A stretch of DNA of 64,000 bases, taken from the NCBI GenBank assembly GCA_963799485.1, contig CAWCXJ010000004.1, positions 160,001 to 224,000 on the forward strand, written 5' to 3'. This document shows positions 30,583 through 37,971 of the stretch, piece by piece. Position 1 is the first letter of the stretch. The number at the start of each line of letters is the position of its first letter. This DNA comes from an uncultured Trueperaceae bacterium. GTDB taxonomy: Bacteria > Deinococcota > Deinococci > Deinococcales > Trueperaceae. Both the position numbers and the translations under genes were made by a program. Under the pieces are notes generated by a model, which did no database searches, was not told the origin of the DNA, and saw only the letters and a list, made by a program, of their open reading frames with translations.

Positions 30583-32028
30583 GTGGAGCTTCCGGTGCCT
30601 TTAACCATAGGCATCGATCTGGGTACGAGCGGTGTCCGCACGCTCGCCGTTAGTGAGACGGGCGCACTTATCGCCGAGAGTACCCGCAGCTACCCGCTTT
30701 TGACCCCGCACCCCGGTTGGACGGAGCAGCGCCCCGAAGACTGGTTTGGGGAGACGGTCGCAGCCCTGCGTGAACTCGCCGCACAGCTTGGCGGACAAGA
30801 AATCGTCGCGCTCGGGCTTTCCGGGCAGATGCACGGGATGGTACCGCTAGACGCTCACGGTGAGGTCGTCCGGCCTGCGCTCTTATGGAACGACCAGCGT
30901 ACCGGGAAGGGCGTCGCTGAACTCGAGGCCGCCGTACCCCGTAAAACGCTGGTCGCACGTACCGGCAACCCGGCGATCACCGGGTTTCAGCTGCCTAAAC
31001 TGCTCTGGTTGCGGCAAGAAGAACCCGACAACTTTGCTCGTACCCGCCACGTGCTATTGCCCAAAGATTATCTGGGCTTCAAGCTTACCGGTGTGGTGGC
31101 GGCTGAACCCTCCGACGCTTCGGGAACGAACTGTTTTGAAATTGCCCAAAAGGTCTGGGACGCCGAGGTGTTGGGGGCGCTTAACCTGAGTACGGCGCTT
31201 TTTCCGGACCTCGTTTCATCCCGTGAGGTCGTCGGCACACTGACCAAAGAACTGTCTTCAGAGACCGGCTTACCGGAGGGCTTGCCCGTCGTCGCCGGGG
31301 CCGGGGACAACGCGGCGGCGGCGATAGGACTCGGTATCTCGAGTCGTACGCCCGGTACAGGCAGCGTCAGCCTCGGTACCTCCGGAGTCGTCTTTGCGCC
31401 GCTAGACGCGCCGACCCCCGACCCACAGGGGCGTGTTCACCTCTTTTGTCACGCCGACGGGGGCTACAACCTCCTCGGGGTGACGCTCGCCGCTGCGGGC
31501 AGTCTTCAGTGGTACCGCGACACCTTCAGGCCGGGTGTGGGTTTTGACGCCCTTACCCGGGAGGCTGAAACCTCCGAGCCGGGCGCGAACGGCGTCACTT
31601 TCAAACCCTACCTCGCCGGCGAGCGTACCCCTCACCTCGACCCCGATTTGCGCGGGTCGTGGACGGGTTTGAGTTTGGCGACGACCCAGGCCGACCTCGT
31701 GCGCTCGGTGCTCGAGGGTGTCGCCTTCAGCCTGCGCGACGCCCTCGACGTTATTACGCCGCTCGCGCCGCTCACCCAAGCTTTTACGACGGGAGGTGGT
31801 GCGCGCTCAGATATGTGGTTGCAACTTACCGCCGATGTTCTGGCGTTGCCGCTCATCCGCCCTAGTCAAAGTCAGGGCCCGGCCTACGGCGCGGCACTTT
31901 TGGCTTTGCAAGGGGTAGGTTACACGGATAAAGCAGCGGCGCTGGCGCGCCTCGAGCGCGACCGGACCTTTTCACCTGACGGGCGGGAGCACTACTACGA
32001 CGCGCTGGGACGTTACCGTACCGCCTGA
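30583..32028 (+). CDS. xylB: Xylulokinase (FGGY family)
   Basis: [32 protein letters not shown] and EGVAF motifs. Confidence 0.9.
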
Positions 32029-32089
32029 GCCAAATGTGTTTCCGGTGCAGGGTTCGGGTTGGGATGAGATTCTCTAGATACACAAATTC

Positions 32090-32121
32090 GACGAGCGTGA
32101 AGTTTAGCGATCACGCTCGTC
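32090..32121. terminator. Hairpin between convergent xylB and the peptide gene
   Basis: gacgagcgtga-N10-tcacgctcgtc (11-bp stem); no clear U-run. Confidence 0.5.
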
Positions 32122-32218
32122 TGGAGTGCGGGTTTGGAGAGATACTCTCGAGGGTTCAGGTTTGATTTTGTTTACCTTGACTTTCCTTAAGGGGGCGCTG
32201 GTGTCAACAGGTGGTGAC

Positions 32219-32335
32219 TTACCTAGAAGATGATGCAGGTGTGACAACACCGGGACTTATAAGCCTAGACCTTGCAAATCCGACACTACCGACGCTTAAG
32301 CAAATCATACCGATGATAAGAGCTTTCTTGAACAT
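32219..32335 (-). CDS. 38-aa secreted peptide precursor (candidate signalling peptide)
   Basis: MFKKALIIGMICLSVGSVGFA-RSRLISPGVVTPASSSR; strong GAAGGAGGAGG RBS; TACAGT -10-like element; below the ORF-track cutoff. Confidence 0.8.
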   Translation of the reverse strand: MFKKALIIGMICLSVGSVGFARSRLISPGVVTPASSSR

Positions 32336-32463
32336 GATTCCTCCTCCTTCAACTGTCCCTACTGTACAAAAGCCTTGTTGCCGCGGCGTTACAGCTTTTG
32401 ACGTGCGCGTTGCAACAGCCTTGCATCACGCCAACGCTTACATTTTGATAAGGAGGACTACGA

Positions 32464-32646
32464 ATGACCAAAAATGAAGCACGTGAAATTTTGGCTGAAA
32501 CCTGGCGGTTCAGCCGCGTCGGTGAACTTATCGCCTTACGCGAAGTCGAGCTTATCGAAGCGGTGCGCGACCACGAAACCGCGCGTTCAGCCGGGCCGTC
32601 TACGCCCCTGAACTACGCCCACCCGCAACCGCTGCGCTCGTCGTAA
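32464..32646 (+). CDS. Small hypothetical protein (60 aa) divergent from the peptide gene
   Basis: AAGGAGG RBS before ATG 32464. Confidence 0.65.
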   Translation: MTKNEAREILAETWRFSRVGELIALREVELIEAVRDHETARSAGPSTPLNYAHPQPLRSS

Positions 32647-32677
32647 GATTCCGTCCAGAGTTCTAGTTACCGGGGTT

Positions 32678-35125
32678 CTAGTTATAGGTCGGGCGCAGTT
32701 CCTGAGTTACTCTGTGGAGCTGCGCCCTTACGAGCGGCAGCCGCACATCGCCGGTAGGGAGCGCGGCGTGTGTGGCCTGCCACAACTCGAGGTCGTCTTT
32801 AAGCGTTTCGGCAAGTGGCAACAGCGCCTCGGCGTCGCCGGAATGAAGGGCGCTCTGCCGTAACCGCTCTTCGAGATAAAGCCGTGCCTCACGGACGCCG
32901 GGAGCGTCGCTCGCTTCGAGGAGCGGCCCCCGGTAAAGCTCGAGCGCCGCTCTTACGTCGCCCGTTGCAATCGCCGCCTCGCAGTCGCCTGCATCGAAGG
33001 TAAACGGCACGGTGATACGGTACGGCTCAGGATGTGCGCTGATCGGCACAAGCACCCGCAACCGTGAAACTGCTGAGCGCAGCGCCACGAGCGTCGTATC
33101 CTCGTCGTCGTAAAGGCAGCTGTGTAAAACTTCGGGAGTCAACCCTTGGGGGTGCAGGGCGAGCAGCACGAGGGTTTCCAGCGCCCGTTCGCTGAGCGCG
33201 AGGCGCTTGTCGTTGAACCATACTTCCGCCCGCCCCAAAACCTTGATGTGTAGCGGCACATGCTGAGCCGCGAGTGTACTCCAAACGCTTGCGAACTCGG
33301 TCTCAGGGCCACAAAAGAGCCGGAAGCCGACAGGCGAAAGTGCCTTGAGCGATTCTTGCAACGTCGCGCTGAGTTCACTAAAACGTAGCGCGCCGGTCTT
33401 GAGTAGGTGCAGCGCTGCCATGATTCGGAACGACGCCTCGATGTCCGGAGCCGCGAGCACTCTCATCAGGTAACTGCGCGCCGCCTTGGGGTTCTGAACT
33501 GCGTAAACCATCCCGAGCGCCAGGAACGCCGGGAGCGTGACGAAATCGTCCTCACCGGTCGTCAGGGTTACGGCGTACTGCGCCTTGGCGAGCGCTTCGT
33601 CTACTTTTCCTCGCTCGAGCAAAATCCGTACCAGCGGTACAGTCGCACCACCTATCAGCCAGCGCGGGCTACGCTCGAGGTTTTCGGCAGCCAGCTTTTC
33701 TGCTTCCCTCAAATTGCCCAAGACAAGTTCGAGATTTGCCAGCGTAGTACGAATATAGGTTGCTACACTGAGTTCTGCGGAATCAGCGGCAGCTTTAGCT
33801 TCTAAAAGAATTTCGTGTAACCCGTTGATCTGCCCCGCTATGATGTGAGAGCTTGCATAGAAGTAAAGAAGATGTAGCCGCGCTGTGCCGTCCTGAACCC
33901 TCTTTTTTTCAAAAGTCTGGAGCGCCCAATCACTCCAGTGGGCTGCCTCCTCGAATTTTCCCAAATAGTTGAGGCTTTCTGCAAGCGCCCCAGCATTGCG
34001 TGTAACCTCATAGGGGCGACCAACTGTTTCAGCAAGCTTGACACTCTGTTGCAAGATTGTTGCGCCTACTTTTCCGTCTATGTGCAACCGACCAAGTTGA
34101 TAAAGTGTAAGCGGTGTCGTCATTGCTGCTGCTGCGCGTTGGGCTTGGGCGAAACTCTCTTCTGGGTCGGGAAGCATACCCGCATAGCGGGCGCGCAGTT
34201 CCGGCGCTTCGTTGTCTTCCAAATAGGCTTCGATAGCAGGCAGTATATGGCTGTAGTCCGACTGACTAAAGCCGGCGACCAGCCGCCACTCGAGCACCTT
34301 TTCGCCGCCTTGATAGCGGTCGTCGAGGCTTTCGAGCAGCAAGTGCAGCCGTCCGAGTAACCCTTGCTCCAGGTACACTGGCCCGGCCTCACCGATGAGT
34401 TCGGAAACCTGTTCGGGTACACTCATAACGGCAAGCTCGAGCGCCTCGATATGGCGACCGAGTTTTTGCAACACCTCGAGCAAAACACCCGGCGCTACCA
34501 GCGCTTCGTTGCCCGGTGCGGTGAGTGGGCCCTGCGCCGAGGGAACGTGCGGCAACGGTATCCCGCGGAGGCGGCAGACGCTGTTCATGAAGGTCAGGTA
34601 CGCACCCCCCGAAGAGCGCCATAAGGTGCGCTTTTCGTCTTCGCTGAGAAAATGACCTGCCAGGAGTTCGGCTTCGTCCGGGGTGAGCGCGAGCTCCTCG
34701 CGGCGGAGGTGCAACCCAGCAAAGGTCGCGTCCGTGCTGTTCGTCACCAAGATAGGCTTCGCGCCTACCTCGGCAAGCTCGAGTAACGAATCACGAAAAA
34801 GGGGGGTGTAGTCGGCGTTGGTACAAGCAATCGTCATGCCGCCGAGCAGGGGCAGCCGTTTTCGCAAAACCTCGATACTGTAGCTAAAGGGCAGTGCGTG
34901 AGGTAAGAAGTTGGCCTCGAGCGCTGTATTTACCGCGTCTGCCAGGCGGTTGCCGATAGCCACCGCGTCGCTTGCCTCGGTAGGGGTGAGTTGCAACCAG
35001 GCGAGCCTTTGGGTATGACTGAGCGCCTCGAGCAAAAAGGGCGCGCCGTAGGCCTCGCCCCCTTCGATTAAAACAGGGCCGGGATGGGCGCGAAGTTTCG
35101 CTAATAATCTCTGAGTCCAGATCAC
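32678..35125 (-). CDS. Large transcriptional regulator: degenerate MalT-like ATPase, helical/TPR-like sensor, C-terminal wHTH/SARP-like activator domain
   Basis: N-terminal VLIEGGEAYGAPFL/LAWLQL resembles MalT-type P-loop regions; C-terminal LHIKVLG...LLALHPQGLT...LRSAVSRLR...ALELYRGPLL. Confidence 0.8.
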   Translation of the reverse strand: MIWTQRLLAKLRAHPGPVLIEGGEAYGAPFLLEALSHTQRLAWLQLTPTEASDAVAIGNRLADAVNTALEANFLPHALPFSYSIEVLRKRLPLLGGMTIACTNADYTPLFRDSLLELAEVGAKPILVTNSTDATFAGLHLRREELALTPDEAELLAGHFLSEDEKRTLWRSSGGAYLTFMNSVCRLRGIPLPHVPSAQGPLTAPGNEALVAPGVLLEVLQKLGRHIEALELAVMSVPEQVSELIGEAGPVYLEQGLLGRLHLLLESLDDRYQGGEKVLEWRLVAGFSQSDYSHILPAIEAYLEDNEAPELRARYAGMLPDPEESFAQAQRAAAAMTTPLTLYQLGRLHIDGKVGATILQQSVKLAETVGRPYEVTRNAGALAESLNYLGKFEEAAHWSDWALQTFEKKRVQDGTARLHLLYFYASSHIIAGQINGLHEILLEAKAAADSAELSVATYIRTTLANLELVLGNLREAEKLAAENLERSPRWLIGGATVPLVRILLERGKVDEALAKAQYAVTLTTGEDDFVTLPAFLALGMVYAVQNPKAARSYLMRVLAAPDIEASFRIMAALHLLKTGALRFSELSATLQESLKALSPVGFRLFCGPETEFASVWSTLAAQHVPLHIKVLGRAEVWFNDKRLALSERALETLVLLALHPQGLTPEVLHSCLYDDEDTTLVALRSAVSRLRVLVPISAHPEPYRITVPFTFDAGDCEAAIATGDVRAALELYRGPLLEASDAPGVREARLYLEERLRQSALHSGDAEALLPLAETLKDDLELWQATHAALPTGDVRLPLVRAQLHRVTQELRPTYN

Positions 35126-35301
35126 CGCACTACACTCTTTTGGTCGCTAAACAGGTTACCTTTTTGATCGACAGCTCTCACGTTAACCCCCCGGTCGTTT
35201 GGGTGAGTATAGCAGGTCTACCGCACCCCGGCATAGGTCGACCGGTCTGCGCCGAACTGTGCCAAGTTCAACACTGCTGGGGCGTCATGTAAAGGCCGCC
35301 G

Positions 35302-36375
35302 TTACGCCGCGAGCCGGTCACGGCCCGCTTGTTTGGCGCGGTACAACGCGCGGTCGGCTCTGGCGATCAGCGTTTCGGGGGTGTCGCCGGGGCGGTAAAC
35401 GCTAACGCCGATAGAAACGGTGACGAGGTGTTCGCCGGCGACAGGGTCGGCGCGAACGGCGTAAAGAAGTCGTTCACCGAGTTGCTGCGCCCCATAGAGT
35501 TCCGTTTGCGGCGCGACCACGACAAATTCTTCGCCTCCCCAGCGGCCTAAGGTGTTCCCGGCCCGGAGTTCGCCCCGCAAACGGCGGGCGATTTCCCGCA
35601 GCACCTTGTCTCCGGTGGGATGACCAAACCGGTCGTTGAGGCGCTTGAAATGGTCGATGTCGATGACGAGCGCGGCGCAGGGCGTTCCGTTCCGGCTCGC
35701 CTGGGCAATCGCGGTGTCGAGGACGGTCTCGAGCTGACGCCGGTTGGGTAAATCGGTCAAAAAGTCGTGGTTGGCCAACCGCTGAAACCAAGCCGCGTCC
35801 TGACGTACCTGCGTGAGTTCGCCGTCGATCCACATCGAGGCGCTGACGAAAGAGAGTAGAAGCGCGTGAGCTACGGCAAAGGTAGCTGCGAAGACGAGCC
35901 CGTCGAAAAGGTTCGGGCCGCCTAGCGTCATCAGGGCGTGCGGCAGGTTGAGGAGCGAAAAAACGAGAAGCACGGTGCCTGCTTGTAATAGCGCCTGCGG
36001 CCCCGGCAGACGGTTAAAAAACTGAACGTAAAGTGCAGGTAAAAGGAGCACGCTGGCGACGATAAGCTGCTGCGCCAGCCGTGACGGGTAGGCGAAGTAA
36101 AACGCGTAAACCCAGCCGACGAGCAGTAGGGTGAGATACAAGTACGGCGCGGCGACGAGCAACACCCGCTGCCGTTTGCGCTTGCTAAAGAGCGTAATAA
36201 GGTCAAAGACGACGACCAAAAAGAGGGTGAGGTTGATGCCGCTCACGCCTACCCGCGCGAACTCGAGCACAGCGCCCACACTACCGAGTACGAGCGTGCC
36301 CCAGACGAGCGCAGTTTGTGACCAACGCGGATAGTTCTGCGGCTTTTCTGAAGGAGAGTCGGATAGCGTCGTCAT
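35302..36375 (-). CDS. Membrane-bound diguanylate cyclase (GGDEF)
   Basis: About six TM segments, DFLTDLPNRR, DIDHFK, RWGGEEF; probable start ATG 36375. Confidence 0.93.
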   Translation of the reverse strand: MTTLSDSPSEKPQNYPRWSQTALVWGTLVLGSVGAVLEFARVGVSGINLTLFLVVVFDLITLFSKRKRQRVLLVAAPYLYLTLLLVGWVYAFYFAYPSRLAQQLIVASVLLLPALYVQFFNRLPGPQALLQAGTVLLVFSLLNLPHALMTLGGPNLFDGLVFAATFAVAHALLLSFVSASMWIDGELTQVRQDAAWFQRLANHDFLTDLPNRRQLETVLDTAIAQASRNGTPCAALVIDIDHFKRLNDRFGHPTGDKVLREIARRLRGELRAGNTLGRWGGEEFVVVAPQTELYGAQQLGERLLYAVRADPVAGEHLVTVSIGVSVYRPGDTPETLIARADRALYRAKQAGRDRLAA

Positions 36376-36774
36376 AAAGAGGAGAACACAACGTCTTTTG
36401 GAGTATACCTGCCTGACGTCCACACGCACCCGACATTGAGGCTTCGTAAAGCTACCTTTTGCAACTTGCTGAAGTCGCATGTTTGGCTTACCAATACCCT
36501 ATATTCAGCACGGAACAAGCGGAAACCTGGTAACCTTCGCCTGGCGCAGCCCGATGTATACCCCTGAATAAATCCGCCTCAAGCGATGGCTTGAACGCCC
36601 TGGCTACTGCTGCTGTCTGTTAGTTTATAGCTCAAAAAGTCTAAACAAACAAAAACTAACAACAAAATCCATAAATTGTCCACTGCTTGCCGTTTACTTC
36701 TTTCGGCGTCCATAGTATCCTCTTGCATATTACGTCGTTAGGACGTCACGGAAATGACGTCATGAAAGGAACTT

Positions 36775-37971
36775 ATGTCTTTTAGCTCGAGTCGTGTCTA
36801 TATGCCTACGCACAACCAGCGCGCCGTACTCGACCTTGTAAGAACCCGGGGGCCCATCTCGAGAGCCGATATCGTTCGGCTGTCCGGGCTGACCTTCCCG
36901 TCGGTTTCGCGAATTATCGGTGAACTTATCGAACGCGACCTCGTAGCGGAGAAGCGGCAGCGGCGCGGCGGTATGGGTAAACCACCGACCGAACTCGAGG
37001 TCAATCCCAAAAGTGCCTTTTCAGTCGGTCTCAACTTGGACCGCGACCAGCTCTCCGCCGTGCTCGTCGATCTTTCAGGCAAGGTACTCGCGCGGCGTCA
37101 CGCTATGCTAACAGACCCCGGCCCCAAAGAGGTGCTGCCGCTGATGGTGAGCGCTACCGAAGCGCTGCTCGAGGGGCAGGACGTTCCCAAGCGGTTGCTT
37201 TTAGGGATCGGCGTAGGGATGCCCACCCCGCTTCATACCGATAAAGTGACCGCTAACCTCCCCGACGACCTCGCTGAGTGGGAGAGCGTGTCCGTGACTT
37301 CGACGCTCGGTAAGCAGTTCGGGTGCCCCGTCCTGCTGGAAAATAATGCGACGGCGGCAGCGATCGGTGAACGCTGGTACGGTGCCGGTTGCAACATCAA
37401 AGACTTTTTCTTCGTGTTTTTTGCTTATGGCGTCGGGGGCGGCGTGATTCTAGGCGGTCAGCCGCACCTCGGTTACAGAGGTTTCGGCGGCGAGTTGGGG
37501 CTCCTCCCGGTTCGTAAGTTTCAAAAAGGCCAACCTCGTGACACCTGTTTTTACGCCTCCCCCGGTGAACTTGTAAAGCAGCTGAGAGAAACGGGTGAAA
37601 ACGCTACGGTAGCCGACCTCGAGAAACTTTACGACGCGGGTAACGAAACCGTATCGGCGTGGCTCGACGCCGCTGCCGACGTGCTCGTGCCCGCGCTCGT
37701 TTACGCCGAGTGTCTGCTCGACCCGGAGGCGATTATCTTTGGTGGACGGCTTCCGGCAAAACTCATGGACACGCTCATCGCCAAAATCAGCGAACGGTTG
37801 CCTGAGTACCGTCACGAGGCCAAACCGTATGGGCCGAGACTGCTACGCGGCAGTACCGGCGAAGACGCCGCGGCGCTCGGGGCCGCGACGATTCCCGTCT
37901 ACCGGGCGATGACCCCCGACCCGACGCCGGACGGTATCTACCGCTCCGCCGTCTTGCAAGAAAGTTACTAG
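36775..37971 (+). CDS. ROK family transcriptional regulator
   Basis: N-terminal HTH (ISRADIV..SGLTFPSVS), LENNATAAAIGE, GGELG. Confidence 0.93.
   Translation: MSFSSSRVYMPTHNQRAVLDLVRTRGPISRADIVRLSGLTFPSVSRIIGELIERDLVAEKRQRRGGMGKPPTELEVNPKSAFSVGLNLDRDQLSAVLVDLSGKVLARRHAMLTDPGPKEVLPLMVSATEALLEGQDVPKRLLLGIGVGMPTPLHTDKVTANLPDDLAEWESVSVTSTLGKQFGCPVLLENNATAAAIGERWYGAGCNIKDFFFVFFAYGVGGGVILGGQPHLGYRGFGGELGLLPVRKFQKGQPRDTCFYASPGELVKQLRETGENATVADLEKLYDAGNETVSAWLDAAADVLVPALVYAECLLDPEAIIFGGRLPAKLMDTLIAKISERLPEYRHEAKPYGPRLLRGSTGEDAAALGAATIPVYRAMTPDPTPDGIYRSAVLQESY

Follow-up and report, generated by a model that had tools for sequence, protein, structure and literature searches.

The DNA analyzed here is a 64,000-nucleotide stretch (hereafter the window) of the genome of an uncultured Trueperaceae bacterium (GenBank assembly GCA_963799485.1, contig CAWCXJ010000004.1, positions 160,001 to 224,000 of the forward strand). 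It contains a small module composed of a micro open reading frame (ORF) for a 38-residue protein with a Sec-type signal peptide, a gene for a 60-residue orphan protein, orf60, and the gene of an 815-residue transcriptional regulator, with a divergent control region between the first two (Table 1). A preliminary description had drawn attention to the 38-codon ORF on the minus strand (32335-32219), which it credited with a very strong ribosome binding site, and to the regulator, which it read as STAND-derived, with tetratricopeptide repeats (TPR) and a C-terminal winged helix-turn-helix (wHTH) activator domain; the genome was taken to be probably one of Deinococcota. The ORF is present exactly as described, the TPR and wHTH parts of the regulator are borne out by structure models, profiles and fold matches while its STAND part is suggested by a fold match, and the nearest named records of the regulator come from Truepera and Trueperaceae, which confirms the proposed phylum. 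The peptide gene was also correctly placed downstream of, and co-oriented with, the regulator gene; orf60, however, intervenes on the other strand; the peptide gene is therefore transcribed from a promoter region of its own, separately from the regulator. That description was incomplete in that it overlooked orf60, the divergent promoters with SARP-type boxes (SARP, Streptomyces antibiotic regulatory protein), the link to enzymes of cyclic di-GMP (c-di-GMP) turnover and the radical S-adenosylmethionine (SAM) maturases. The observation is here enlarged to a conserved module of regulator, orf60, pro-peptide gene and two SARP-box promoters, joined in relatives by a c-di-GMP phosphodiesterase.

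Table 1. Genes, domains and predicted control elements of the module and its surroundings (positions are those of the window).
Feature	Position	Strand	Basis or remark
Peptide micro-ORF	32219..32335	-	38 aa; coding selection, homologues in 49/53 clade loci
Micro-ORF signal peptide, Sec-type	residues 1-21, 32273-32335	-	read from sequence
Micro-ORF 17-aa tail	32222-32272	-	family x-P-G core, then Ser-rich end
Regulator, 815 aa	32678..35125	-	degenerate STAND-like N-domain, TPR and SARP
Regulator STAND-like N-domain	34511-35125	-	structure model, fold match
Regulator TPR region	33290-34135	-	structure model, profile matches
Regulator SARP module, wHTH and BTAD	32681-33268	-	fold match to AfsR, EmbR
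orf60, 60-aa cytoplasmic orphan protein	32464..32646	+	conserved ~40-aa N-domain, variable tail
Divergent control region, 128 bp	32336..32463	.	common to peptide gene and orf60; highly conserved in L001, L002, L003, L112
Peptide-facing tandem heptamer pair, 11-bp period	32376..32393	-	hexamer TAnnnT 9 nt on
Peptide-facing TAnnnT hexamer	32361-32366	-	9 nt after heptamer pair
orf60-facing tandem heptamer pair, 11-bp period	32411..32428	+	hexamer TAnnnT 10 nt on
orf60-facing TAnnnT hexamer	32439-32444	+	10 nt after heptamer pair
Hairpin, 11-bp stem	32090..32121	-	~100 nt past peptide stop codon; kept in relatives; z-score -3.9
Membrane GGDEF diguanylate cyclase gene	35302..36480	-	directly upstream of regulator; possible accessory part, closest relatives only

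The ATG of the micro-ORF is preceded by a strong Shine-Dalgarno (SD) sequence, GGAGGAGG, and its first residues read as a signal peptide with a KK n-region, a 14-residue h-region and a G-F-A cleavage motif. Coding selection was assessed in the six pairwise comparisons among four close relatives, L001 (the window's own locus), L002, L003 and L112, whose regulators are 81–84% identical and all of which keep the frame and length of the micro-ORF. In codons 2–21 the proportion of nonsynonymous differences (pN) was 0.00–0.04 against a synonymous proportion (pS) of 0.31–0.61. The tail is less constrained, with pN of 0.25–0.45 against pS of 0.64–1.04, yet its P-G core and Ser-rich basic end are kept. 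Because pN lies far below pS in the signal-peptide codons, the N-terminal half is under strong coding selection, and the 38-codon ORF is a real coding gene. The frequency of such ORFs was gauged with our own crude filter, which asks for an ORF of 25–80 aa that has an SD sequence and a basic N-terminus and contains an uncharged hydrophobic window of 12 residues. The filter yielded 0.025 ORFs per kb over the whole genome (91 in 3,655,195 bp) against 0.149 per kb in the regulator flanks (72 in 484,850 bp), where they cluster at fixed positions.

A chance frame in an AT-richer spacer, of which only the promoter region would be conserved, could also be small, lie in a stretch of low G+C (0.46–0.49 at 32100–32500, around the peptide gene and spacer) and lack any Pfam or NCBIfam family match, as this ORF does. 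Such an origin is nonetheless extremely improbable given the pN/pS ratio below 0.1 in the signal-peptide codons, the strong SD sequence, the conserved frame and length, and the homologues in the regulator clade and analogous ORFs in other families that are described below. A lipoprotein was rejected, since no lipobox precedes the conserved Cys and the Cys itself is missing in L006 and L032, and a mobile element was set aside, the G+C dip being limited to the peptide and spacer stretch and the window's locus carrying no integrase. Rfam gave no match over 31500–36800 at E values up to 1. A scan for T-run terminators over 31950–32750 made no call, and hence did not call the hairpin past the peptide stop codon, which is a likely transcript end.

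The regulator showed only sub-threshold Pfam matches (TPR_12 and TPR_MalT) and none in NCBIfam. An AlphaFold2 model built from a 20-sequence alignment was confident, with a predicted local distance difference test score (pLDDT) of 90 and a predicted template modeling score of 0.81. It comprises an α/β N-domain (residues 1 to ~205), helical repeats (residues 212–619) and, after residue ~619, a β-sheet plus three-helix unit followed by further helices. The best whole-model fold match in Foldseek was the STAND-TPR protein 6mfv_A (E 5.7e-8, with a low template modeling (TM) score of 0.25/0.30), and a PDB profile search with the regulator returned TPR proteins with E values down to 8e-18. At the place of the Walker A motif, the 20 sequences have the consensus G-G-E-A-x-G-A-P-F, with little or no variation at G27 and P29; the pattern GxxxxGK[ST] was not found in the N-domain. 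Because the Walker A Lys is absent, this domain would be a degenerate, probably non-hydrolyzing STAND remnant. The Pfam accession PF27103, which is precomputed on many regulator homologues (P0045-P0149), could name part of the protein.

The C-terminal 205 residues, modeled alone from 30 sequences (pLDDT 92.5), matched best the SARP domain of AfsR (8hvr_I, E 5.6e-7, TM 0.59/0.50; also 8k60) and next EmbR (2ff4 and 2fez, E 6.4e-5), over ~225–256 alignment columns for AfsR and EmbR, with DNA-binding domains of the OmpR/PhoB type ranking far below. The sequence profile of this region matched only OmpR-type winged helices (ToxR, CpxR, PhoB and OmpR), and the Pfam families BTAD (E 0.015) and Trans_reg_C (E 0.003–0.05) stayed below their cut-offs. 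The OmpR-type wHTH and BTAD helical domain that together characterize SARPs are thus both present in the model; the module lies, however, at the C-terminus (residues ~620–815 of 815) and not at the N-terminus, where SARPs have it. With the STAND remnant N-terminal, the TPR in the middle and the SARP fold C-terminal, the regulator is, on these models, an inverted 'large SARP' in the order pseudo-NTPase, TPR, SARP.

Homologues of the regulator are widespread. The regulator shares 58% identity with P0073, a protein of Truepera radiovictrix, whose 971 bits equal the score of the match at L005 in genome G002. At E up to 1e-40 it occurs in 103 of the family's 128 genomes and, at E up to 1e-30, in 132 of the phylum's 364 genomes, both tallies including one unpublished genome (G128) from which no locus was drawn. 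By family code, the hits fell in f1 (103/127), f2 (11/125), f3 (6/23) and f4 (11/68), with none in f5 (0/19) or f6 (0/1), and many genomes have at least two copies. We gathered 97 non-redundant loci with 1.5–3 kb flanks, and a FastTree phylogeny of 95 full-length regulators placed that of the window in a 53-member clade with 100% local support. Within this clade orf60 adjoins 52 of the regulators, the 53rd having an assembly gap there. The peptide gene is intact in 49 of the loci, broken by 100-N gaps in three (L056, L058 and L063), and recognizable in L060, where no start codon was found. The peptide gene and orf60 are always divergent, 118–254 bp apart.

Two arrangements exist in the clade. 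In class A (nine loci, from the window's genus and one other) the peptide/orf60 pair lies downstream of the regulator, whereas the 44 class B loci have it upstream in inverted orientation, with orf60 and regulator in the same direction. Class B peptides have 46–116 residues and end in Asp-x-Gly; class A peptides have the same core plus 9–12 further residues, the last being Lys or Arg. The hydrophobic core ends in conserved A-x-A-like motifs. Genes for an exporter, for immunity or for modification were not seen in the class A and B loci. As an independent check, 20 loci were taken from other families of the phylum, and in 14 of them the same filter detected a signal-peptide micro-ORF; these ORFs encode 35–58 residues and are located just past the regulator stop codon on the opposite strand. 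By eye, a signal-peptide ORF is also present in L128, L099 and L100. Most regulator homologues, both in the clade (49/53) and in other families (14/20), therefore have an adjacent signal-peptide micro-ORF, a positive outcome of the check that the preliminary description had proposed. One genome (G023; loci L007, L103 and L104) holds at least three paralogous regulators, each with its own, different signal-peptide micro-ORF, an arrangement that resembles the multiple Rap-Phr pairs of Bacillus.

The window's orf60 has its own strong SD sequence, AAGGAGGA, sits between the peptide gene and the regulator gene on the opposite strand, and is convergent with the latter, 31 bp separating the two stop codons. 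It belongs to no Pfam or NCBIfam family, and the ESM Atlas gave no usable match. The spacer that orf60 shares with the peptide gene carries two outward-facing promoter-like arrays, each with a tandem heptamer pair and a −10-like hexamer, TAnnnT. The whole genome of the window (G000) contains 32 tandem-heptamer matches, of which only two are followed by a correctly spaced hexamer, both in this spacer. The predicted transcripts would begin a few nt beyond 32361 on the minus strand and 32444 on the plus strand. A TGCAAC-type heptamer in the same layout is found in 8 of the 9 class A spacers. In class B, the pair TGAAGCG-N4-TGAAGCG occurs in both orientations in 29 of 38 spacers (at most 3 mismatches of 14), with TAnnnT exactly 10 nt on in 29/30 peptide-facing and 28/29 orf60-facing pairs, the remaining orf60-facing one being at 9 nt. 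Outside the spacers, only five TGAAGCG pairs with at most 2 mismatches were present in the 565,718 nt scanned, and the remaining nine class B spacers hold other repeated heptamers, seen by eye. A sigma-70 consensus promoter scan over 31950–32750 found none.

SARPs bind heptameric direct repeats, classically arranged in 11-bp units that overlap the −35 region, as passages of a published account describe (PMC10972967). Heptamer direct repeats with an 11-bp period, at the −35 place, are what the spacers contain. Because the repeats match the described SARP site, the regulator most likely activates both divergent genes and, in class B, its own operon as well, as judged from the sequence pattern. 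There, orf60 and the regulator gene are co-oriented behind the heptamer-pair promoter, so the class B regulator would raise its own expression. In a further group, class C, the heptamer-plus-hexamer rule fits 3 of 24 regions upstream of the peptide gene (L016, L062 and L070) against 28 of 4800 shuffles; the peptide gene of class C is mostly not the first gene of its operon. Two side observations concern the regulator gene. No terminator was found between the convergent stops of orf60 and regulator (32646-32678), and in class A activated orf60 transcription could read antisense into the regulator gene, whereas in class B the same promoter would drive the regulator. The regulator coding sequence also holds a third tandem heptamer pair, one mismatch away from the class A pattern (~34047-34064, minus strand), in a low-G+C patch (33700–34100, 0.49–0.53), with no correctly spaced hexamer.

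The precursors themselves give an indication of the product. In six class B loci, they contain identical repeated units of 12–14 residues, separated by non-conserved spacers of variable kind: four units in L042 and L045, three in L059, two in L051 and L054, and at least four in L058. Since these units, which end in Asp-x-Gly, are repeated identically, the unit is the likely released product, to judge from the precursor sequences. The 100-N gaps of L056, L058 and L063 lie exactly within multi-copy precursor genes; the repeated units probably break short-read assembly, and copy numbers there are therefore minimum values. Tandem pheromones on one propeptide are described for some RRNPPA systems in two papers (PMC11343458, PMC9765709).

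A second conserved feature is the neighborhood of enzymes that act on c-di-GMP. In 42 of the 44 class B loci, the peptide gene has an EAL gene behind it in the same orientation; two of these EAL genes were tested, and both reach the Pfam EAL cut-off. The encoded proteins have ~240–295 residues and, by eye, no hydrophobic N-terminal segment. In class A, a gene of HD-GYP type (Pfam HD_5) follows the peptide gene in 5/9 loci. The window, at ~32022-32090, lacks ~700 bp that encode the HD-GYP protein (HD_5) in L031:5930-6830 and L112:5410-6320, where the gene lies between the peptide-gene hairpin and the end of an FGGY kinase gene, and in L112 this gene is shortened by a stop codon. From these comparisons, the phosphodiesterase output seems to be decaying in the window's lineage, with the peptide gene, orf60 and the regulator kept. 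In 5 of the 9 class A loci the regulator has a GGDEF gene in front of it, with strong matches in L001-L004 and a weak one (32%) in L112. A distant paralogous regulator clade (class D, 23–31% identity) is accompanied by 33-aa signal-peptide ORFs (L078, L081, L083, L085-L088, L091 and L109). The predicted mature part of these is only ~7 residues and ends in Arg, and in most class D loci the ORF adjoins a membrane HD-GYP gene, 0.7–2.7 kb from the regulator.

These neighbors raise the question of whether the micro-ORF product ever leaves the membrane. It might be a small membrane-anchored protein whose uncleaved signal anchor modulates the adjoining membrane c-di-GMP enzymes (GGDEF here, HD-GYP in relatives), with no diffusible signal. 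Basic residues on both sides of the window's hydrophobic core (K-K before, R-S-R after), the multi-pass membrane N-domains found in the GGDEF protein and in HD-GYP proteins of class D, and the position of the class D 33-aa peptides directly beside the membrane HD-GYP gene are compatible with such a role. Precursors with 2–4 identical units and variable spacers, however, make sense only if they are cut into free peptides. The conserved A-x-A-like motifs also speak for cleavage, and the class B partner enzyme is an EAL protein in which no hydrophobic N-terminal segment was seen. We therefore regard a membrane-bound function as improbable.

A diffusible peptide leads to the reading that we prefer and to which we give a probability of about one half: the module is an autoinducing peptide circuit, RRNPP-like in its working, built on a SARP/STAND-type receptor and with c-di-GMP turnover as its output. 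In its favor count the conservation of the genes within the clade and in the sample from other families, the SARP fold, the layout of heptamers and hexamers, the multi-copy precursors, the EAL gene behind the class B peptide gene and the class B promoter before the regulator. In the circuit that we infer, the SARP module of the cytoplasmic activator would bind both tandem heptamer pairs in the 128-bp spacer and turn on two divergent promoters without a −35 element, that of the pro-peptide gene and that of orf60. The pro-peptide would be exported by the Sec pathway, freed of its signal peptide and trimmed to a short peptide, which in the sister group would be the 12–14-aa unit ending in Asp-x-Gly. 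The short peptide would build up outside the cell, re-enter and bind the activator at its TPR sensor, so that a positive loop forms like that of PlcR-PapR or AimR-AimP. Most relatives would co-transcribe the peptide gene with a c-di-GMP phosphodiesterase (EAL or HD-GYP), which would make a density-dependent drop in c-di-GMP the output. In the window genome, where the HD-GYP gene is deleted, orf60 would be the sole other product of the two promoters.

Re-entry would call for peptide-binding uptake proteins, and G000 encodes at least 14 family-5 peptide-binding proteins (16 matches to PF00496); such proteins are required by the signaling model, yet they are not specific to it. Binding itself was addressed by complex prediction with residues 1–625 of the class B regulator of L042 (32-row alignment) and the last two units of its precursor. 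The prediction scored 0.47 (0.47, 0.59 and 0.47 in the individual runs) against 0.01 for the best control, the pLDDT of the partner was at least 35 and the runs shared at least 59% of contacts. In the calibration of the tool, 116 of 157 solved complexes and 2 of 215 mismatched pairs came up to the mark; scores of 0.60 or less were given by only 18 of the 157 solved complexes, plus both passing mismatches. The L042 model thus weakly supports binding of the peptide to the regulator.

Several observations weigh against an autoinducing circuit. The complex prediction, besides being weak, comes from a class B pair rather than from the window's own, and the proposal that the peptide is the TPR ligand rests on analogy, on the circuit topology and on this one prediction. 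Distances between peptide cores correlate alike with those of all four regulator regions (r 0.49–0.57, descriptive values for non-independent kin), and there is no covariation specific to the TPR (partial r −0.03, compared with +0.29 for residues 206–330, again descriptive only). The preliminary description had asked whether the tails covary with the receptor clade: they do differ between regulator clades, but they carry no TPR-specific signal. Its reading as a receptor-peptide pair is supported in part. The peptide cores are, moreover, fairly conserved, being identical in L014 and L053, whose regulators differ at 24% of positions, which contrasts with the rapid pherotype turnover of Rap-Phr. 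The window's own peptide is atypical as well. The R-S-R at the start of its tail follows straight after the hydrophobic core and, from the sequence, may hamper export or cleavage; a Ser stands at the position of the relatives' conserved Asp; and the tail has a 9-residue extension (10–12 residues in other class A peptides) that is absent in class B.

A last group of observations against it comes from the wider family. In 11 of 117 loci, identified by tblastn, the peptide gene lies behind a gene resembling maturases of ribosomally synthesized and post-translationally modified peptides (RiPPs) of the radical-SAM type, and in L113 it follows a B12-radical SAM RiPP C-methyltransferase that scores above the NCBIfam cut-off. 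The enzymes of the 11 loci resemble radical SAM/SPASM RiPP maturases with scores below the family cut-offs. Because radical-SAM genes precede the peptide gene there, some members of the wider family have the look of a RiPP cluster under regulation, and this pairing agrees with what SARPs classically do, namely activate product clusters. In the window's locus, L001, there was no radical-SAM match, and no maturase stands beside its precursor. In L115-L123, L007, L099, L100 and L128, precursors that have a Sec-type signal peptide and, in the tail, one or two Cys lie directly behind radical SAM/SPASM maturase-like genes; that a Sec leader goes together with cytoplasmic RiPP chemistry is unusual. 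In L113, an insertion sequence (rve) gene adjoins the C-methyltransferase gene.

These data could be taken to mean that the regulator is solely a cluster-situated activator, whose TPR and pseudo-NTPase domains sense another cue (c-di-GMP, some other nucleotide or orf60), and that the peptide is an end product acting outside the cell or on a membrane receptor, be it RiPP-like, an unmodified bioactive peptide or a signal for another sensor. According to passages of a published account (PMC10972967), SARPs serve as pathway activators for product clusters, and the maturase-like genes, the lack of TPR-specific covariation and the conservation of the peptide cores across fairly distant regulators speak for this reading. 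Against it, the class A and B loci, the window included, have no maturase, exporter or immunity gene. The pairing of the peptide gene with a soluble EAL or an HD-GYP enzyme resembles a regulatory output, the operon of the class B regulator itself lies behind a heptamer-pair promoter, as is typical of autoinduction, and the complex prediction is weakly positive. On balance, we consider an activator without a peptide ligand the main rival, less likely than the signaling loop.

The autoinducing circuit that we favor resembles RRNPPA systems (PlcR-PapR, NprR-NprX, Rap-Phr and AimR-AimP) in that a cytoplasmic TPR regulator stands beside a short exported pro-peptide gene, in that predicted regulator sites before the peptide gene give an autoinduction topology, and in the several tandem copies of the presumed mature peptide on some propeptides. 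Two elements of such systems were found: a cytoplasmic receptor with a TPR-type domain, by profile and model, and an adjacent short pro-peptide gene with an export signal. In contrast to RRNPPA receptors, which have an N-terminal XRE-type helix-turn-helix or, in Rap, an N-terminal bundle, the effector here is a C-terminal SARP module; the extra pseudo-NTPase domain, the conserved third gene orf60, the c-di-GMP phosphodiesterase output and the phylum (Deinococcota rather than Bacillota) are further differences. No Rap, Rgg, NprR, PlcR, PrgX or AimR chain was among the 50 Foldseek or 60 PDB profile matches listed. The module would thus work most like an RRNPP-type autoinducing circuit, yet it lies outside that family, and the fold of its regulator is that of SARP/STAND activators in an unusual order.

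With MalT-type STAND activators, the regulator shares a putative STAND-like N-terminal part followed by a helical repeat sensor, as well as the weak TPR_MalT Pfam matches and the fold match to 6mfv_A. It differs from MalT in the low TM scores of that match, in the degenerate P-loop, in a SARP instead of a LuxR-type output domain and in a presumed peptide instead of a sugar ligand. AfsR, which is controlled by phosphorylation, and other large SARPs (SARP plus NB-ARC plus TPR) contain the same three kinds of domain and provide the best structural match. They too have heptamer direct repeats with an 11-bp period at the −35 place, as described in the same account (PMC10972967). Differences from AfsR lie in the inverted domain order, the absent Walker A Lys, Pfam BTAD and Trans_reg_C matches below cut-off, and the partner, which here is a secreted peptide gene instead of an antibiotic cluster.

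The class C loci invite comparison with a third kind of system. Streptococci have radical-SAM RiPP operons under quorum-sensing control, namely Shp/Rgg with streptide-type clusters. Like these, class C has a TPR-type regulator beside an operon of radical-SAM maturase and short precursor; unlike them, its precursor bears a signal peptide of Sec type and a separate pheromone gene was not seen, and the window's own locus contains no radical-SAM gene at all.

A broader proposal is more tentative. The modules could form a phylum-wide family of peptide communication in Deinococcota, the first with a cytoplasmic receptor outside Bacillota, in which the receptor would have arisen independently from a SARP/STAND-type activator. 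Its Sec-exported pheromones would, depending on lineage, be unmodified (and often multi-copy) or modified by radical-SAM enzymes, the circuit would feed c-di-GMP degradation, and orf60 would be a new 60-aa effector or co-factor. No published account of the module was found in open-access full text and bioRxiv. Because the module is compact, with two predicted promoters and a short peptide, and because a cultured host, Truepera radiovictrix, carries it, the hypothesis is directly testable.

Two papers (PMC9765709, PMC10075063) treat peptide quorum sensing through intracellular TPR receptors as characteristic of Bacillota and their phages. If our reading is true, a convergent Deinococcota system on a SARP/STAND scaffold would widen this Bacillota-centered picture, large SARP-type regulators would gain a candidate class of ligand, and peptide signaling would be tied directly to the control of c-di-GMP.

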